Positions 2,577 through 20,010 of a DNA stretch of 53,164 nt are shown here, in pieces. This DNA comes from Candidatus Sungbacteria bacterium RIFCSPLOWO2_01_FULL_47_32 (GTDB lineage Bacteria > Patescibacteriota > Minisyncoccia > Sungbacterales > GWA2-42-14): the NCBI GenBank assembly GCA_001820685.1, contig MHQP01000014.1, positions 1 to 53,164 of the forward strand, in the 5' to 3' direction. Positions within the stretch are counted from its first letter, which is position 1, and each line of letters starts with the position of its first letter. The position numbers were made by a program, and so were the translations under genes. Under the pieces are notes generated by a model. The model searched no databases. It was not told the origin of the DNA and saw only the letters and a list, made by a program, of their open reading frames with translations.

Positions 2577-5500
2577 TTACTGTTTTATAAAGAAGTATTC
2601 CCCGCGCGTTCTTCCAAAGTTCTCTGGAAAATACATCTCTGACGCAACTGCAGGCAAGTGATGATATTTCCCGGGGATAAGAGACCTAACAAAATAATCA
2701 TATTCATAAACACCCGGGGCGAGCCGTTCTTTGAAAAGGAAAAGACGGTCATCGTGGGATTCTTCCGCGTCAGGATACAAAATATTCTGGCGATGCTTTA
2801 CTCTGGAATATTCTTCATCGGCAAGTTCTCCAGGCAAGCTCACAAAACCTCCGAACGAAAATGCAAACAAATTCTTAAATCCGGAAACGAGAGCCGCAAG
2901 GAAGTCGGGAGAGTTCCCGGAAACGGCGCTATTTCCCTTAGCCCTGCCTTGTCCCTCTCCGTCATAATAATCGTCTCCGCCGCCGTATGGGTACGGCCGA
3001 TTTTTTTTCAACGATTGGTCCTCGGTTGCGAGTTTCAGATTTACAAGCTCCATCCCGGCGGGAATAAAGTCTTCAACTGAAACAAAATTCCTTGACTTCG
3101 GAACGATGACCGTGAGGTGTCCCTTCAAAACTTCTCCGACTTTCGATTCGGAAACCGGGTTTTTATTTTGTTCGTCGTCAAGCCGGTAAAACTCGCGAGT
3201 TACCGCAAAGCCTTCGTCCCGTGGCGGAATACTATCAATCGGCAAGAAATATTTAAGGAGCATGTCATAGTAAAACGCATTCGGAAGATTGTTCTGGTTT
3301 TTTTTCGCAAATTCGATGCTATGTACGGAGTTTGAAGGAAAATCCGCAACAGGAAGGAATGTTTCGAATGTATTTAATATCGTATCCTTGTTGAAATAGA
3401 ACGTTCCTTTCTCTTTTCCATCCAAAGAAAGAGAGAGCGAAAACTCGGATTCGGTCTCCATTTTCCATTGAAGAAAGTCAACCAAAGCGTCGATGACGGA
3501 AACCGTGTTATTTGTCGAACCCCACGCTCCGTCTTTTGCGCGAGACCTCAATATCCACCGTAGCACTTTATCCATTATCGGGTTTTGCGACCTGTCGGCA
3601 ACCAAGGCTTTCAAAAGGAGTGCCGTATCCTTTACCGGAGTTTCATAATAATCCCAAAGCCACTGACCGCTGAATTCCCTCAAAAAGGCTCCGCGCGCAT
3701 CGATTGTAATTCTATTTTCTAGAGTTTTAAAAACATCATTCTTTACGGAAACCGGATATCCTTTGGTGAGAATGATGGCGAGGTACGCAAGCGAGATGTT
3801 CGAGATATCTTCACGAACAAACTTTTTATCAACCGTAATATCCAAAATTTTATTTCTTAAGACACTCTGTGCCGCGTTAAATCCGTCAAGCCGGGAAAGA
3901 GCATACGTCGTGAGGATGACAAGATTTTTATCCTGATTCAGCCGGTAATCTGATACTATTTGGCTATAGAGAAACTGCGCGGCCCGATTTAACACGGAAT
4001 CGTTAACGGCATACCCTGCCCGTTTTAATTCTTCAATGGCGTTTACGATATGAAGCGTCAAATGGAAGCTTGGCTCCATCCCCCGATAATATGTAAATCC
4101 GCCCGCCGCTGTCTGATTTGAATATATTCGCGCAAGCCCAATCTCAACCACGTCGTCAACCGAGTATTTTTTGCCCGCAAACTCAACATCTTTCAAAGAA
4201 AATTTATCTCCCACATTCGGAACGGAAAGACCGCGTTTCACAATAGCAATTGAACTCAACTTGCTTGCAATCTGCTCCGAACAGCCATACGGATATGACA
4301 CGAGATAGTTAAGCGCATCCGACAAAAACACGGCAAGAGTAGCGCTCGTTTTGAGCGTAACCCCTCCTTTGTCCTTTACGATATTGTCGGGAAGAAATAC
4401 ATATTCCTTAGCATGTGCGTTTGACGTAAAATAGGCAGTCGCCACCGATTCGTACGTGTCGTTCCTTTTTATCGGGAAGGAGTTTTCTACAGTATCTTCG
4501 TACGAATCATTTTTTGCGGAAATAGTGAACGTGTGCTCGCCGTCCTGAATCTTTTCGGGAGATACGACCGGAAAATAGACCATTGAAGTGTCGCGCGCTT
4601 TTACGGTAACGGACGTTTGGACGTCGCCTTTTGCCTCGAGAGTCGGACTGGTTAATGAAACAGCAAGTTTTTGCGAAGTATCGGTCTGATTGAATATTTT
4701 CGCTCCGATCATAAATTCGTCTCCGGGAATGGCAAAACGCGGGCGCAATGGCGTCACCATGAGGTCTTTTTGGGAAACAAACTCACTATATCCGACGCCG
4801 ACTTTCGTATCTTTAGTAACGCCCAAAACCTCGGTTTGCCATGTCGTAAGGTTGTCGGGAAGCGTGAATGTTACTTCGGCCTTCCCGTCTTTTCCTGTTT
4901 CAACAACTCCCTCCCAGTACGCGGTATCCTTAAAGATGCCTCTTTTTTTCTTCGCTAAATCTTCCGGCTCTCCTCCGCCGCCGCCTTTTGTGCCGAGCGG
5001 AATTTCTGCCTCATAAAGAATATTCTTGATATTGGAAGCGGTGGTAACGGTTAACGGCATTCCTCCGTAGAAAAATGCAACCGGATTTTTCTTCGGATTT
5101 CCCTTAAGGGCAAGAACGCTCAAATCCGCAACCGCGACGGAAATTTCCGCCGGAAGAGCCCTGCCAAAAGAATCTTTTGTTTCAATAGAAAGGCGGACTT
5201 GCTCTCCCGGAAGATAGTGGTTCTTGCTCGGCTTCACGTTGATAAATACCTCTTTTTCTTTCGTGTTGACGACAAAATGGATTTGTCCGAATTTCACCTC
5301 GGGACGCGGAGAAAGCACTATCACAGAGACGTAGACATCCGGGATGTGCGCTTCTTTTACCTCAAACGTATAATCAACAAGGTTGCGGTCAATATCAATG
5401 ATCGAGTAGTCAAAGATCTTGCCGCGCTCAATACTCACGAGCGCCTTTGCTTTCGTGTACGGCGACTTAATAATAATTTTAATTTTATCGCCAACATCAA

Positions 5501-13440: not shown

Positions 13441-13657
13441 ATGACGGTTCAATCTCAAAACTTGCGAGTACCGATGGTTTTTCGATCAAATCGAAATCAG
13501 CGGGATTTTCATCCTCAAGCTGTAATGCGATAGCTTCTTTCAAGTTTTCAGAAAGTTCGTCAAGCGTTCTACCTTGCGTCACCACCGGCAAGTCAACGCA
13601 TTCCGCTACATAATGCGTATCACCTTTAAATACGTGTACCTGTATGATTTTTTTCAT
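13427..13657 (-). CDS. hicB: HicB family antitoxin
   Basis: YVAECVDLPVVTQGRTLDELSENLKEAIAL. Confidence 0.85.
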   Translation of the reverse strand: MKKIIQVHVFKGDTHYVAECVDLPVVTQGRTLDELSENLKEAIALQLEDENPADFDLIEKPSVLASFEIEPSYAKT

Positions 13658-15277: not shown

Positions 15278-16000
15278 TTAAAGTTTTAAGAGCGGCGCTT
15301 CCCAACCGAAACACGTCTCTTTGTCTTTTAACATTTTGAATGCTTTTGTGCAGGAGGCATTAAGTTTTGCATATTCTTTAAGCACCTGAACAGTTTCTTC
15401 AATCAGACCGCCGACGGTACCGTCGGAATCATCAACACCGCTTCGGCAAAGTTTGTCATCAAGCCTCAAGAGCAAATCAATGAGTAATTTTGCGGTTTGT
15501 TCGCTCACCGGCAATTCTGAAATGATTTTTGACAAACGATTGCATCCTTCCGAAAGAGAACTCTGGTATGAAAACCAAATTCGGGAAGGTCCATTATATG
15601 GCTTAATATATTTCATGGCGCCAGTGATTGATTTTTTTACTGCGGATAACCCGGCGTTACTTAATTCTTCCAACCGGCCACTGCAAGTGGCTTGAGAAAC
15701 GAGCTGCTTATCCTTCTCACTCAATTTTTTACCATCCATCACCGCATGAATTGCTACCGCCACCATATGTTTACAAAGCGTATCATTCTGACCAAGATAG
15801 CATTCGCAATGACCGTAGTCATAGCGGCGCGCCTCCACTGAAACTCGATACGGTTTTGTGCCCAGCACTATAGCTGAATAGTTGCCGATACCCTCTTCGA
15901 TCTGTGTTACTTTTCCATACTCGTATAAGCCAACTGCCTTTTCAAAAGTCAGCCTGTCGGTTGCAAATTTAATTTTATCCAAATCATATGAAGGCTTCAT
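15278..16000 (-). CDS. SWIM zinc-finger protein
   Basis: CECYLGQNDTLCKH (CxC..CxH). Start set at MKPSY because the longer ORF would overlap a tRNA exon. Confidence 0.75.
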   Translation of the reverse strand: MKPSYDLDKIKFATDRLTFEKAVGLYEYGKVTQIEEGIGNYSAIVLGTKPYRVSVEARRYDYGHCECYLGQNDTLCKHMVAVAIHAVMDGKKLSEKDKQLVSQATCSGRLEELSNAGLSAVKKSITGAMKYIKPYNGPSRIWFSYQSSLSEGCNRLSKIISELPVSEQTAKLLIDLLLRLDDKLCRSGVDDSDGTVGGLIEETVQVLKEYAKLNASCTKAFKMLKDKETCFGWEAPLLKL

Positions 16001-16124
16001 AAAATTTACTTGGGTCGAATCCAAGAAACGAGCGGCGCTAATGTTCGAACGCATCCTAGTCGCCTTAGCGACGTAGGCGTCTCGATCTCCTGAATTAGCA
16101 TGTGCTGACTGCGGGACTTGGATT

Positions 16125-16312
16125 TTCACCCCGTTAGATACAGCAATATAATATTTAATATACTTCCAAGCAGCGCTGCGGGACCTGGATTCGAACCAAG
16201 ATACCCGCCTCCAGAGGGCGGTGTCCTACCGTTAGACGATCCCGCAGCGCTGCCAACAAGACAGAATCTCTGAAATAATTTCTCTACATTTAATTTTAAG
16301 CATCTAACGGGG
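16125..16312. mobile_element. 188-bp IR-bounded insertion in the T-loop of the outer tRNA-Gln, carrying a tRNA-Gln
   Basis: 11-bp inverted repeat CCCCGTTAGAT (16129-16139) / ATCTAACGGGG (16302-16312). Mobility is inferred. Confidence 0.65.
16176..16246 (-). tRNA. Inner, intact tRNA-Gln(CTG)
   Basis: TGCGGGATCGTCTAACGGTAGGACACCGCCCTCTGGAGGCGGGTATCTTGGTTCGAATCCAGGTCCCGCAG forms a full cloverleaf; CCA is not encoded. Confidence 0.95.
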
Positions 16313-16513
16313 CGAACCAAGATACCATGCTCCAGAGGCATGTGTCCTACCATTAGACGATCCCGCAATACGTAAACTATGTTAGAGGTTCACCAACGTC
16401 TTTCGTATATGAAATACCGTAAGGCGAAACCGCCTTTGGCTCACAATAATTTTAATAAACAAAAAGAATCTTTAACCTCTAACGTGGTAAAAGCGCCTGT
16501 TACGGCGCCTTTT

Positions 16514-16542
16514 ATAGTAGCATGAAAAAGATTGTTTTTCAA
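16514..16542 (-). promoter_or_regulatory. Promoter upstream of the tRNA-Gln locus
   Basis: TTGAAA-N17-TACTAT with an extended -10 TG. Confidence 0.5.
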
Positions 16543-16544
16543 TA

Positions 16545-17438
16545 TTAAACTCTCAAGTACCGGTGCACCGCGATAAAGCTTGAAAAAACTCCGAGAACAA
16601 CTCCAACTCCGATAAGAATTCCACCGAACTGAAGCAGATGTTGCTGATAATACACATGCATATCAATAGATGGGATCACGACAAGGAGCTTGGGAGAAAC
16701 AACCCAGAGAACCGGATAGAAAAGTATAGCGGCAAGGCCCCCGGACGCAATTCCGTGCATAACACCTTCAAACAAGAACGGCCCGCGGATGAACCATGAG
16801 GAGGCCCCGACAAGGCGCATGATATTTATTTCTTCCCTGGCTGACCAGATAGCAATGCGAATTGTGTTGAACGCAACAAGCATGGCAATGGCCGCAAGAA
16901 CAAATATGACGGCAAGTCCGGAATTCCTCACGCCCGCCAAAATTCCGGAGAGGCGGTCGATGACAACCTGATTTTCGTAATAGTTGATCTTATCAACGAT
17001 AGGATATTTTTTATTCTGAAGATAATCGGCGACATCCTGGAGTTTTGTCGGGTCTTTTGCTTTGATATTCAACGTTGCTTCAAGCGGATTTTGGTCAAGC
17101 TCTCCCAACGCATTGATGATGGTTGCGTCATTTTTATGACGGTCTTTGAATTCCGCAAGTACTGCGTCCTGTGAAATATAAGAAACTTCTTTTACGTCGC
17201 TCAATGCCTCAAGACTGTTTTTGATATTCATAATGTCGGACTCGCTCGAATTCGGATAAAAATACACGGCGATGTCTATTTTCCCTTCAAGGTCTCCGAG
17301 AACAACCTGTGCCGCAACCCCCATCAAAATGAGCCCACCAATGACAAACAAGGTCAAGGTCATGACTAAAATGGTGGCGGTTGAAAGCCAGCCGTTCCTC
17401 ACGAACGATACCCAGCTGTTCTTGATAATGCGCTTCAA
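16545..17438 (-). CDS. ftsX: Cell division permease FtsX
   Basis: RNGWLS, NPLEA, NTIRIAI, EINIMRLVGASSWFIRGPFLFEG; directly follows ftsE. Confidence 0.92.
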   Translation of the reverse strand: MKRIIKNSWVSFVRNGWLSTATILVMTLTLFVIGGLILMGVAAQVVLGDLEGKIDIAVYFYPNSSESDIMNIKNSLEALSDVKEVSYISQDAVLAEFKDRHKNDATIINALGELDQNPLEATLNIKAKDPTKLQDVADYLQNKKYPIVDKINYYENQVVIDRLSGILAGVRNSGLAVIFVLAAIAMLVAFNTIRIAIWSAREEINIMRLVGASSWFIRGPFLFEGVMHGIASGGLAAILFYPVLWVVSPKLLVVIPSIDMHVYYQQHLLQFGGILIGVGVVLGVFSSFIAVHRYLRV

Positions 17439-17577
17439 AGTTTGAAAAACACTAATTACTAAGCACTAAAACCTAATCTGATAGTAGCCCCTCAAATAAG
17501 AAAAATCAAATAGGGCTAGGTTTTGGAAATTAGAGTTTGAAATTTGTTTAGAAATTAGAATTTCGAATTTAGAAATT

Positions 17578-18258
17578 TTAAATGACATACTTGCCTTTTT
17601 CCTCGTCCCGCACAACCTCTCCCTTCTCCATCGTAATGACGCGGCGTCCGAGTTCGTCCACAACTTCTTTGTTGTGGGTTGCGAGAATAATGGTCGTGCC
17701 AAGCTCATTTATCTTCAAAAGAAGCTTAATAATGTCGATGGACGTGATGGGGTCAAGGCTTCCCGTCGGTTCATCCGCCATAATAACTTCCGGCCGATTC
17801 ACGAGCGCCCTCGCAATGGCAACGCGCTGTTTTTCCCCCCCTGAAAGCTCATGCGGAAAATTATCCGCTTTGTCCAAAAGCCCGACAAGGCCGAGTGCTT
17901 CTGGAACGTCTTCCCGGATATCCGAATCTTTCGCTCCGGCGGCTTCCATCGCAAATGCGACGTTTTCGAAAGCAGTTTTATTCGGAAGAAGCTTATAATC
18001 CTGAAAAACAGTCCCAATGCGCCTCCGGACCTTTGGAAGTTCGCCGTATCCGAGGCTCGTTACTTCAAGCCCGTCAAGAAAAATCTTTCCTTCCGTCGGT
18101 TTTTCTTCGGCAATAAGAAGTTTTAAAAGCGTTGATTTCCCCGCACCCGATGCTCCCACAACCGAAACAAATTCTTTCGGCAGAATGCGAAGATTCACAT
18201 TTTTCAATGCGAACTGGGTCGGCGTATAAATTTTTGAAATGTTGTCGAAGACTATCAC
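17578..18258 (-). CDS. ftsE: Cell division ATP-binding protein FtsE
   Basis: GASGAGKST, VFQDYKLL, LSGGEKQRV, ADEPTG. Confidence 0.93.
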   Translation of the reverse strand: MIVFDNISKIYTPTQFALKNVNLRILPKEFVSVVGASGAGKSTLLKLLIAEEKPTEGKIFLDGLEVTSLGYGELPKVRRRIGTVFQDYKLLPNKTAFENVAFAMEAAGAKDSDIREDVPEALGLVGLLDKADNFPHELSGGEKQRVAIARALVNRPEVIMADEPTGSLDPITSIDIIKLLLKINELGTTIILATHNKEVVDELGRRVITMEKGEVVRDEEKGKYVI

Positions 18259-18277
18259 GGCTTACCGGTCTATTATC

Positions 18278-19376
18278 TTATATCTGTTTTAGTTCTTCTT
18301 TTATAAATTCATCAAGTTCTCCTTCCAAAACTTTTTCGGCTTGCGTTGTTTCGTGTCCCGTGCGGTGGTCTTTTACCATTTTGTAGGGGTGGAGCACATA
18401 GGAGCGTATTTGGTGGCCCCACTCAATGGAGGCGGTTTTGTCGTGGTATGTTTCCCGTTCTTTTTTCTGCTCCTTTAGTTTCTTTTGGTACAATTTTGCC
18501 CGGAGCATTTCCATCGCTATCTCCCGATTTCCCTCCTGTGTTCGCCCGGCCTGCACGGATACGTTGAGACCGGTCGGAACATGCGTGATGCGAACTGCTG
18601 TTTCGCGCTTGTTCACGTTTTGGCCTCCGGGGCCGGACGACCTGAAAAAGTCTATTCTTAATTCATCGGGCTTCAGTTCTACTTCTTCCGGAGCAACAAA
18701 CTCCGGGAGCACCTCAACAAGCGCAAACGACGTGTGGCGAAGACTCTGCGAAGAAAAAGGCGAAATGCGGACAAGCCGATGCACTCCAGATTCTCTTTTT
18801 AAGTATCCGTACGCGTATGCTCCTTTTACTAAAATGGAAACGTTTTTCAGCCCCCAACCGGACGGTCCGTTTTGCTCTCCCCAGTGCTCGTGCACCGCCG
18901 CCGTTCCATATCCGCCTATTTCGGCCCAACGTTCATACATTCTTCGAAGCATTGCCACCCAGTCTTCCGAATCCTTTCCTCCCGCTCCGGCAAAAATTGA
19001 TAAAACCGCATTCCCTTTGTCGTAAGGGTTCGTGAAGCGCTTCAGAAGCATGAATTTATCAAAGTTTTTTTTGAGCTTACGGGCGCGTTCGGCGATTTCA
19101 TTCACCATCCCTTCGTCGGCTATTTGGAGCATCTCGATAAGGCTCCCCACTTCTCCCGCGTATTGCTCATATTCGGCGATTCTTTTTTTCAGCTGGGAAA
19201 GTTCCTGCGATTTTTTCTCGGCGGATTCGCGATGATTCCAGAAATCCGGCTCCGCCATTTCTTTTTCTATTTTGAGAATAGCTTCTTTTGTTTTGAGAAC
19301 GTCAAAGCCATTCCGCGGCATCGCGGATGTTATGATTAAGCTCTGCAAGATTTTGCGTCAATGCTTCCCGTTCCAT
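18278..19376 (-). CDS. prfB: Peptide chain release factor 2 with programmed +1 frameshift
   Basis: ATG at 19376 gives MEREALTQNLAELNHNIRDAAEWL, then CTT TGA C at 19307-19301; the +1 frame continues DVLKTK and contains the SPF and GGQ motifs. Confidence 0.95.
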
Positions 19377-19562
19377 ACTAGGTATACTGTAGCACTTTTG
19401 CGTGAAAAAAGAAAGGGCTGCCTGATTTTTTCAGCGCCATCTCCGAGATTCCCCTCTAAAAGCGGGTGAAAAAACAAAAACCTTCACTGTATTCACCCCT
19501 CGCCTTATTCCGGAGCCGAAGGTAGGATTTGAACCCACGACCTACGCGTTACGAAAGTGCTG

Positions 19563-19727
19563 TCCCGATTGATTAAAAAATAAGAGCCGCCTCCGAGATT
19601 CGAACTCGGGACCTTTGCTTTACGAAAGCACTGCTCTACCAGCTGAGCTAAGGCGGCTCTTATTTTTAAAATATCAATCGAGGATCCTCGAAAAATCTAT
19701 CCGGCTTTGCCGAATGATTTTTCGGGA
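19563..19727. mobile_element. 165-bp IR-bounded insertion in the D-stem of the outer tRNA-Thr, carrying a tRNA-Thr
   Basis: Terminal TCCCGA / TCGGGA; internal CGATTGAT/ATCAATCG and AAAAATAAGA/TCTTATTTTT arms. Mobility is inferred. Confidence 0.65.
19585..19657 (-). tRNA. Inner, intact tRNA-Thr(CGT)
   Basis: GCCGCCTTAGCTCAGCTGGTAGAGCAGTGCTTTCGTAAAGCAAAGGTCCCGAGTTCGAATCTCGGAGGCGGCT cloverleaf. Confidence 0.93.
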
Positions 19728-20010
19728 CTCTACCACTGAGCTACTTCGGCATGCTTTTAATTTATTTTTCCGCTACCGGAAACAAAAACCGCCGCCAAAG
19801 AAGACTATTGGAAAGAAGCTCATCCCGCGCCAGACCATGAATAGTTATATAAAACGGAATACATGGCGCAAAGCGAAAGAGGAAACTGGAACGGCACTTT
19901 CTCCAACCTATAACAAAAAACAGGCACTGTCCATGCCTGTTTCCATTTTTCAATTGTACATGCCTAAATTATTTTATTAAGCCCTTCCTTGGGAAAAACA
20001 CGCTTTTTTG

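Follow-up and report, generated by a model that had tools for sequence, protein, structure and literature searches.

The stretch of DNA analysed here, referred to as the window, is positions 1-53,164 of contig MHQP01000014.1 from Candidatus Sungbacteria bacterium RIFCSPLOWO2_01_FULL_47_32. Two transfer RNA (tRNA) loci lie on its minus strand, one on either side of the genes ftsX, ftsE and prfB, which were identified with Pfam. At both loci a tRNA gene is split by a hairpin-forming insert, and the insert holds a complete tRNA gene with the same anticodon, Gln(CTG) at one locus and Thr(CGT) at the other. The split gene is designated as the outer tRNA, and the complete gene as the inner tRNA. With a probability of roughly 0.6, the outer halves are relics, and the inner genes are replacements delivered by mobile hairpin elements. 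The parts of the two loci are listed below.

16313-16367, minus strand: 5' part of the outer tRNA-Gln(CTG), from the acceptor 5' strand to the T-stem 5' strand, and then TTCG
16125-16312, minus strand: Gln insert of 188 bp, a hairpin of the CCCCGTTAGA inverted-repeat family that splits the T-loop and holds the inner tRNA
16302-16312, minus strand: left end of the Gln insert, CCCCGTTAGAT, an 11-nt perfect inverted arm
16247-16254 and 16168-16175, minus strand: complementary flanks of the inner tRNA-Gln, extending its acceptor stem
16176-16246, minus strand: inner tRNA-Gln(CTG), complete and canonical (ARAGORN; Rfam RF00005, 57 bits, model positions 1-71)
16129-16139, minus strand: right end of the Gln insert, ATCTAACGGGG, an 11-nt perfect inverted arm, followed by TGAA
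16110-16124, minus strand: 3' part of the outer tRNA-Gln(CTG), with the T-loop end, T-stem 3' strand and acceptor 3' strand; discriminator at 16109
19728-19750, minus strand: 5' part of the outer tRNA-Thr(CGT), with the acceptor 5' strand, D-stem 5' strand, D-loop and three bases of the D-stem 3' strand
19563-19727, minus strand: Thr insert of 165 bp, a double hairpin (TCCCGA...TCGGGA) that splits the D-stem
19685-19727, minus strand: hairpin 1 of the Thr insert, TCCCGA...TCGAGGA, without an open reading frame (ORF)
19678-19691: central palindrome of the Thr insert, TCGAGGATCCTCGA
19658-19684 and 19563-19584, minus strand: arms of hairpin 2 of the Thr insert (TCCTCGA...TCGGGA), with the inner tRNA at the tip
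19585-19657, minus strand: inner tRNA-Thr(CGT), complete and canonical (ARAGORN; Rfam, 65.8 bits)
19515-19562, minus strand: 3' part of the outer tRNA-Thr(CGT), from the last D-stem base to the acceptor 3' strand; discriminator at 19514

The first-pass annotation, made from the window's letters, had described outer tRNAs split by inserts of 165-188 bp with inverted ends, complete inner tRNAs of the same anticodon, and inner acceptor stems lengthened by complementary flanks. This description is correct at both loci, since predicted folds, interval deletion and contigs from public sequencing runs all agree. Every possible interval around each inner tRNA was removed (51,529 pairs each), and the remaining sequence was submitted to ARAGORN. 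At the Gln locus, all 63 junction-spanning calls were Gln-ctg; at the Thr locus, 104 Thr-cgt calls appeared among noise. The junctions of the joined outer genes, with the break marked by a slash, read GGTTCG/AATCCAAG for Gln and GGTAGAG/CAGCAC for Thr. The predicted fold of each whole locus is an outer cloverleaf bearing a long helix with the inner cloverleaf at the helix tip, and these folds have z scores of -7.24 (Gln) and -8.43 (Thr), with none of 200 shuffles as good. When the Rfam tRNA model was run at E<=10 on the whole 1.15-Mb genome, 34 full tRNAs and only three partial matches were found. The partial matches are the Gln locus (16326-16358, in the outer 5' part), the Thr locus (19522-19543, in the outer 3' part), and a nested tRNA-Asp on contig C1. 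Four public DNA runs, from four studies (X1, X2, X4 and X8), gave contigs that match the junctions between outer gene, insert and inner gene without differences, at 16000-16204 in X2 and X8, at 19526-19605 in X1 and X2, and at 19624-19800 in X1, X2 and X4.

The inner tRNA-Gln and tRNA-Thr are presumed to be working genes, and the outer tRNA-Thr has two mismatches in its anticodon stem. The break points in the T-loop (Gln) and the D-stem (Thr) stand as first described. One correction concerns TTCG at the left Gln junction: relatives read CCCG at the same site, and therefore TTCG may not be T-loop sequence. Joints labelled "skips 139" were considered as empty Gln alleles and rejected; other letters stand between their two sides, and they resemble tRNA-Gln genes of other organisms. 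A scan for sigma-70-type promoters, which is uninformative for this lineage, gave no minus-strand site near either locus.

The ends of the Gln insert, CCCCGTTAGA...TCTAACGGGG, are the ends of a dispersed, transposon-like family whose inverted ends open with CCCG and close with CGGG. In this genome, 28 pairs of left and right ends lie within 450 bp of each other, while about 3 are expected from match densities, and 13 of these pairs are 107-111 bp long. CCCG...CGGG inverted repeats number 32 in the genome and 4 in a shuffled genome. The copies in this genome are mostly intergenic and are 60-76% identical to one another. A copy without an inner tRNA lies beside the Gln locus:

16377-16488, no strand assigned: ORF-less family copy of about 110 bp with degenerate CCCGTTAGA-type ends, between ftsX and the outer tRNA-Gln

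Compared over its length, this copy shares 76% identity with the one at C1:40294-40410, and its conserved interior includes a small central hairpin. An 11-nt CCCG...CGGG repeat with its arms 310 bp apart (4082-4391) is inside a 2235-amino-acid ORF and was taken as chance. Integron attC sites were also considered for the family. GTTAGAT/ATCTAAC fits the attC core motifs, but the hairpin order is reversed relative to attC, most copies have GTTAGAA or GTTAGAG instead, and arrays of copies are not formed. The sequence of the Gln junction was also compared with a K-turn and with a bulge-helix-bulge, and neither fitted.

To cover other phyla, one genome per species was scanned for two family ends 70-100 bp apart, and at least 120 loci were found in many phyla. 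Patescibacteria groups, Omnitrophota, Planctomycetota, delta-proteobacterial lineages, a Spirochaete, and others are among the matches listed. An origin in the candidate phyla radiation (CPR), as first suggested, agrees with the small genomes of the relatives and with the named look-alike records, which are mostly Patescibacteria; a restriction of the family to CPR was contradicted by its presence in many phyla. Identical 4-mers stand on both sides of 62 of 121 distinct copies, in contrast to 8 in a mispaired control, and identical 5-mers were found in none. The consensus of the repeat is T-N-N-A, and the repeat behaves like a target-site duplication. Among the first 83 cross-phylum elements listed, four carry a tRNA, and each of these is accompanied by outside fragments of that tRNA, on both sides in three of them and as a 3' fragment only in the other. 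They come from one Saccharibacteria, one Spirochaetia, and two Parcubacteria records. Each element family with CCCG...CGGG ends has three kinds of members: short ORF-less copies (about 100 bp in the family of the Gln insert), copies encoding a GIY-YIG nuclease, and copies carrying a tRNA.

The nuclease-encoding members were found among relatives. Copies with family ends 240-270 bp apart are present in 15 of 61 relatives, and a reversed control pattern gave none. Sixteen such copies include 9 intact GIY-YIG ORFs (86-96 amino acids) and 4 broken ones. The nuclease-bearing unit is 272-284 bp long and has the GIY-YIG gene, typically encoding 86 amino acids, as its sole gene. No known transposase was found between family ends, and the GIY-YIG nuclease is the only kind of ORF there. 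The ORF ends with ...RFLSLTG / ...KNRLKRFLSLTG in 8 copies. With this ending, the final codons fall within the right inverted end, and the flanking repeat supplies the TGA stop. Direct repeats of 4 bp, TGAG or TGAA, flank most of the nuclease-bearing copies.

The protein matches Pfam PF01541 with 63.5 bits, and it is similar to solved UPF0213 structures, with the E-value 4.1e-7 for PDB 1zg2 (BH0048) and 8.4e-4 for 1ywl. It has at least 4424 homologs, mostly 86 amino acids long, and some from other phyla are about 77% identical. Their names are generic, such as "GIY-YIG nuclease family protein" or "putative endonuclease". NCBIfam gave no family for three GIY-YIG proteins, and one sub-threshold match to a group I intron endonuclease.

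GIY-YIG ORFs sampled from the relatives are often close to tRNA genes: 10 of 30 lie within 300 bp of a tRNA, 9 of them on the same strand, while about 3% are expected from tRNA density. Inverted ends of at least 14 nt surround 7 of 29 such ORFs, and none were found in 145 shuffles. Four GIY-YIG ORFs of relatives (L044, L054 and L064 among them) have a tRNA on one side and a fragment of it on the other. Two of the five small GIY-YIG ORFs of this genome (on C4 and C24) are between 5' fragments of a tRNA and the intact gene of that tRNA.

The design of the Thr insert, TCCCGA...TCGAGGA / TCCTCGA...TCGGGA, recurs around GIY-YIG ORFs at C1 and C24, and also at C4 as an ORF-less insertion in a tRNA-Gly fragment. 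This genome has 6 sites with the palindrome TCGAGGATCCTCGA, and of 400 other genomes of the phylum, 3 have it. Because the Gln and Thr inserts belong to different element families, the two insertions are independent events, in agreement with the first suggestion that two separate events had followed one rule. On C37, about 170 bp upstream of tRNA-Val(GAC) (13574-13647), TCCCGA...TCGRGGA hairpin units are nested in one another, and the elements therefore also insert into each other's loops.

The arrangement is not limited to the window. With other tRNAs masked, a same-strand fragment of a tRNA's own sequence (score >=16, within 500 bp) lies beside 12 of the 34 tRNAs of this genome, and an opposite-strand fragment beside none of them. 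A local-alignment scan at score >=13, unmasked, placed own-type fragments beside 14 of 34. In a cross-type control, 40 of 2244 comparisons reached a score of at least 16, and 8 of these are real neighbouring tRNAs. The matching of outer and inner identities seen in the window also holds beyond it. Tested in 18 flanks with tRNA-like fragments, the adjacent tRNA was the best match in 13 and another isoacceptor in 1, and the remaining 4 are accounted for by a generic short D-arm or by relics that belong to a neighbouring tRNA. Fragments of the 5' and 3' parts are equally common, and the break points include the D-stem, the D-loop and the interior of the anticodon. Upstream of tRNA-Cys there are three 5' fragments, all broken after the same base with TCCCG next. 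tRNA-Lys has at least three relic layers, and some loci are made of three concentric shells; the same sites have thus been invaded more than once. The tRNA-Asp on C1 is split inside the anticodon by an insert with an identical tRNA-Asp. Nine loci of this genome were tested with ARAGORN, which rebuilt the outer copy at 4 (Gln, Thr-cgt, Asp, and Phe) and failed at the other 5 (Thr-tgt, Pro, Ser-tga, Lys, and Cys); the outer copies therefore range from intact to decayed.

At C18:90273-90347, ARAGORN calls a "tRNA-Stop (tta)", and the Rfam match begins one base later. With this shift the anticodon loop reads CT TTT AA, which makes the gene a tRNA-Lys(TTT) rather than a suppressor; the hairpin element around it has at least three layers of relics. 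Many tRNA genes are within about 1 kb of contig ends (C1:204, C6:105, C21:140, C24:1202, C28:7074-7104). Asn, Trp, Gln-ttg, Arg-acg and other tRNA kinds were not found in the genome. That they are present only as interrupted genes, in which case splicing would have been required, was considered and rejected; BLAST with the tRNAs of a closed relative gave only the 3' end of a tRNA-Ser(GGA) at a contig end. The missing kinds probably sit in assembly gaps, and the assembly is probably interrupted at the tRNA loci, which are rich in repeats.

Dozens of independent assemblies and one closed genome have this architecture as well. The closed genome, G026 (923,469 bp), belongs to another family. Its tRNA array excluded, same-strand fragments were found at 10 of 49 tRNAs and opposite-strand fragments at 0 of 49, and G026 has intact genes for every tRNA kind checked. 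The array, at 439,820-442,640, has about 21 tRNA genes in less than 3 kb, which duplicate kinds located elsewhere in that genome, and may belong to a mobile element or prophage. A nested tRNA-Thr(CGT) with the same D-stem break point (GGTAGAG/TCCCG) was found in G047 and G016, and a nested or half-nested tRNA-Gln at the same T-arm position in G038, G005, G007 and G026.

In the same-family genome G004, an uninterrupted tRNA-Gln(CTG) is present at the ftsX-linked locus. The joined outer Gln of the window is identical to it at 70 of 70 positions. The inner Gln differs from the outer one at 8 positions (62 of 70 identical), which bears out the first impression that the two bodies are different, and its best match is a tRNA-Gln of another family (68 of 71). 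The direction of the Gln event is thus a native outer gene and a foreign inner gene, because the outer copy equals the G004 gene and the inner copy is closer to other families. Directly after the outer tRNA-Gln, a motif, CACATGCTAATTCAGGAGA, lies at 16086-16104 on the minus strand, and CATGCTAAGTCAGGTGA is in the same place after tRNA-Gln(CTG) in G004, G009, G007 and G001, which represent several families.

The outer halves are read as relics and the inner genes as replacements because the outer copies show graded decay, the splicing enzymes EndA and RtcB were not found, and the closed relative has intact tRNA genes. Of the two possibilities that the first-pass annotation had offered, the mini-element carrying a replacement tRNA is thus the favoured one, and the dispersed family of ends, its larger nuclease-bearing members, and the shared double-hairpin design of the Thr insert point to it as well. 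In the proposed course of events, a resident tRNA gene would be split by a small hairpin-ended element that brings a whole tRNA gene with matching identity and orientation. The putative nuclease, or host enzymes acting on hairpins, would open DNA where it is structured, for example in the loops of a tRNA gene. In a single-copy tRNA gene, the insertion may survive only when it brings a working tRNA of the same identity. The inner gene would then take over the tRNA supply while the two outer pieces decay. Spread to unoccupied alleles may follow through break repair in a homing-like manner. The inner copy would retain the target site, so that reinvasion would be possible and could produce concentric shells. 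Three steps are inferred: the entry of the tRNA into the element, the lack of the flanking repeat at tRNA sites, and the movement of the elements by the nuclease.

Several observations weigh against this reading. No insert-lacking allele was found in the contigs of the four public DNA runs. The 4-bp repeat of the family is absent at both insertions in the window; the Gln insert is flanked by TTCG and TGAA, and the Thr insert by none. Neither insert has a nuclease gene, and therefore their link to the GIY-YIG nuclease rests on shared ends and design. For Thr the relationship to the G004 ortholog is reversed, with 69 of 73 positions identical for the inner gene and 49 of 71 for the outer gene. 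The pattern of a foreign inner and a native outer gene thus holds only for Gln, because the inner Thr resembles the same-family ortholog. The outer Thr pieces are more alike between this genome and G016 than the intervening hairpin arms are, which could come from independent strikes on similar genes or from constraint on the outer pieces. At the Asp locus, the inner gene equals the outer gene including a trailer of 13 nt, whose reverse complement forms the inner leader; this locus looks like local copying and not like imported cargo.

The alternative that survives best is local rearrangement, which is nevertheless rather unlikely. Hairpins would stall replication, and template switching at the acceptor-stem repeat and hairpins would duplicate the tRNA in place, yielding complementary leaders and trailers and partial copies outside. 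The Asp locus has exactly such a leader and trailer, G005 has only a 5' fragment and a left end before an identical full tRNA-Gln, and tRNA insertions are without the family's 4-bp flanking repeat. On the other hand, the inner Gln differs from the outer one and is like other families, while the outer one equals the same-family ortholog. In distant lineages, too, tRNA-bearing copies fit exactly between these conserved inverted ends, and the ends belong to a dispersed family with flanking repeats. Template switching retains some weight because the missing repeats, the Thr reversal and the local-copy look of Asp do not fit the delivery of replacements by mobile elements.

A nested precursor or intron-like gene is an improbable explanation. 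Here the whole locus would be transcribed, RNase P together with 3' processing would free the inner tRNA, and the outer halves would be joined into a second working tRNA, as the first-pass annotation had also proposed. The whole-locus folds, with an outer cloverleaf and a long helix tipped by the inner one, are consistent with such a precursor, as is the constant same-strand orientation of inner and outer genes. Some outer copies are intact, the outer Gln equals its functional ortholog at all positions, and between the outer Gln here and that of G038 there is a compensatory difference in the T-stem. However, more than half of the outer copies tested (5 of 9) cannot be rebuilt as a cloverleaf, relatives have CCCG at the Gln site where the T-loop needs TTC, and the extra lone 3' or 5' fragments and triple shells do not fit. 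In the predicted folds the junctions are continuous helices without a bulge-helix-bulge, with a 4 x 7 internal loop at Gln and no bulges at Thr. EndA (PF01974) and RtcB (PF01139) gave no match in the genome, which is 98.5% complete, while control genomes matched, and an Rfam scan of the window at gathering scores gave three tRNAs only and no group I intron. Splicing is disfavoured because of the decayed outer copies, the lack of a bulge-helix-bulge, the lack of EndA and RtcB, and the full intact set of tRNA genes in the closed relative.

It is very improbable that the fragments are attL and attR remnants left at tRNA genes by integrase-mediated islands or prophages. According to the accessible text of PMC9897764, integration is common at tRNA genes and leaves partial copies of them behind, and partial tRNA genes are usually attributed to integrating elements; tandem 3' fragments in G038 would be compatible with this. 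The inserts of 165-188 bp, however, have no integrase and are filled by hairpin arms and a tRNA. The outer 5' part runs into an inverted end with no restoring 3' part, and 5' fragments are as common as 3' fragments, with breaks in the D-stem, the D-loop, and the anticodon interior. The first judgement that neither island integration nor a group I intron fits the layout was upheld by these features and the Rfam result. An assembly artefact, in which tRNA repeats of several strains are misjoined in a metagenome bin, can practically be dismissed: public contigs do break in the conserved middle of the inner tRNAs and no listed piece spans a whole locus, but each junction was matched without differences in two to three runs of different studies, the left and right insert arms are mutually complementary, and the architecture is also found in the closed genome and in dozens of independent assemblies.

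The elements share features with several known systems. Like miniature transposable elements with inverted repeats (MITEs), they are short, ORF-less, hairpin-forming and intergenic, with inverted ends and short flanking repeats, and the Thr insert consists of two hairpins. Among palindromic elements, those of Rickettsia and the double-hairpin elements of fungi are parallels. The difference from MITEs is that the only ORF found between the ends encodes a GIY-YIG nuclease and no known transposase, and that certain copies have a tRNA as cargo and are located within the tRNA gene that matches it. Disrupted tRNA genes of archaea (non-canonical introns, split genes, and permuted genes) are spliced at a bulge-helix-bulge by EndA and then ligated. 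Their breaks are likewise at the D-arm, anticodon and T-loop, and complementary flanks form a helix beside the break; here, in contrast, the host is a bacterium, a bulge-helix-bulge is lacking, EndA and RtcB were not found, and the insert includes a complete tRNA. Bacterial group I introns in tRNA genes have a conserved ribozyme core and are inserted in the anticodon loop, while the breaks here are in the T-loop and the D-stem.

There is also a likeness to mobile endonuclease ORFs (mORFs) of fungal mitochondria. According to the available part of PMC3630166, these insert with a foreign copy of the displaced gene part, in Allomyces atp6 and in Glomus atp6, atp9, cox2 and nad3, and the native remnant is identical to that of a close relative while the inserted copy is divergent. 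As far as that part goes, the likeness lies in the splitting of an essential gene, the supply of a replacement, and the adjoining native remnant, and the outer and inner Gln (70/70 versus 62/70) have the same pattern. Some GIY-YIG ORFs of relatives are also located between a full tRNA and its 3' or 5' fragment. The differences are that the target here is a bacterial tRNA, the whole gene is replaced, relics stand on both sides, the insert is a hairpin, and shells accumulate. Most copies here, including both inserts of the window, lost the ORF or never had it.

Disruption of an essential gene with a carried replacement is known from the tRNA-dependent lysogeny of actinobacteriophages (accessible text of PMC10865867). 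There, a whole phage has a tyrosine integrase and an attP/attB core, and its tRNA is located elsewhere in the prophage, whereas here an insert of 90-190 bp without integrase has the replacement tRNA centrally inside the broken gene. In ribosomal RNA (rRNA) genes of CPR bacteria, all GIY-YIG proteins are encoded by insertions unlike group I or group II introns, many uncharacterized ORF-less insertions are shorter than 200 bp, and most insertions are at the top or base of stem-loops, as described in the accessible main text of PMC11270868, in which the word "tRNA" does not occur. The hairpin elements here are likewise in loops of structured RNA genes, as far as that text allows the comparison. 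The rRNA tolerates excised intervening sequences, but a tRNA does not. Since a tRNA, unlike an rRNA, cannot work in pieces, a replacement copy would be needed here.

In the literature available as full text, with most subscription journals outside, no tRNA gene nested in its own relic by a hairpin element of 90-190 bp, no concentric shells of tRNA relics, and no inverted-ended element of about 275 bp with a GIY-YIG nuclease as its sole gene were found. Nested tRNA replacement seems to be common in small-genome bacteria and undescribed, and there is a real chance that the nuclease-bearing elements are a new class of transposons. The broader proposal, that the GIY-YIG units of 272-284 bp are a new class of autonomous bacterial transposons and that their tRNA-bearing derivatives act as gene-replacement drives on single-copy tRNA genes, writing their own copy over that of the cell and leaving nested relics, is tentative and on balance doubtful.

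The prfB gene between the two loci has the classical programmed +1 frameshift site CTTTGAC at 19301-19307 on the minus strand, which is ordinary for release factor 2 (RF2). Its short frame from the ATG at about 19372 stops at CTT TGA, and the long ORF goes on in the +1 frame.

A compact unit of nuclease and hairpin ends, spread across phyla with about 70-90% protein identity and without a functional name, is a candidate minimal mobile element, and its protein is a candidate small structure- or site-specific nuclease. If the broader proposal is true, the GIY-YIG units would be among the smallest self-mobile DNA elements, with a GIY-YIG nuclease in place of a known transposase. For annotation, nested loci give partial tRNA matches and miscalls, such as the tRNA-Lys called "stop" by ARAGORN, and they also lie at contig ends, where they probably interrupt assemblies, so that some tRNAs seem absent from metagenome bins. 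Selfish elements in RNA genes have two other ways of persisting, self-splicing and the rebuilding of the 3' end; bringing along a whole spare gene would add a third way for a selfish element inside an essential RNA gene. The replacement of outer by inner genes would imply that tRNA genes in small-genome bacteria are repeatedly replaced from outside, which bears on tRNA phylogeny and on the turnover of single-copy essential genes. On the broader proposal, the tRNA genes of these bacteria would be horizontally exchangeable cassettes.

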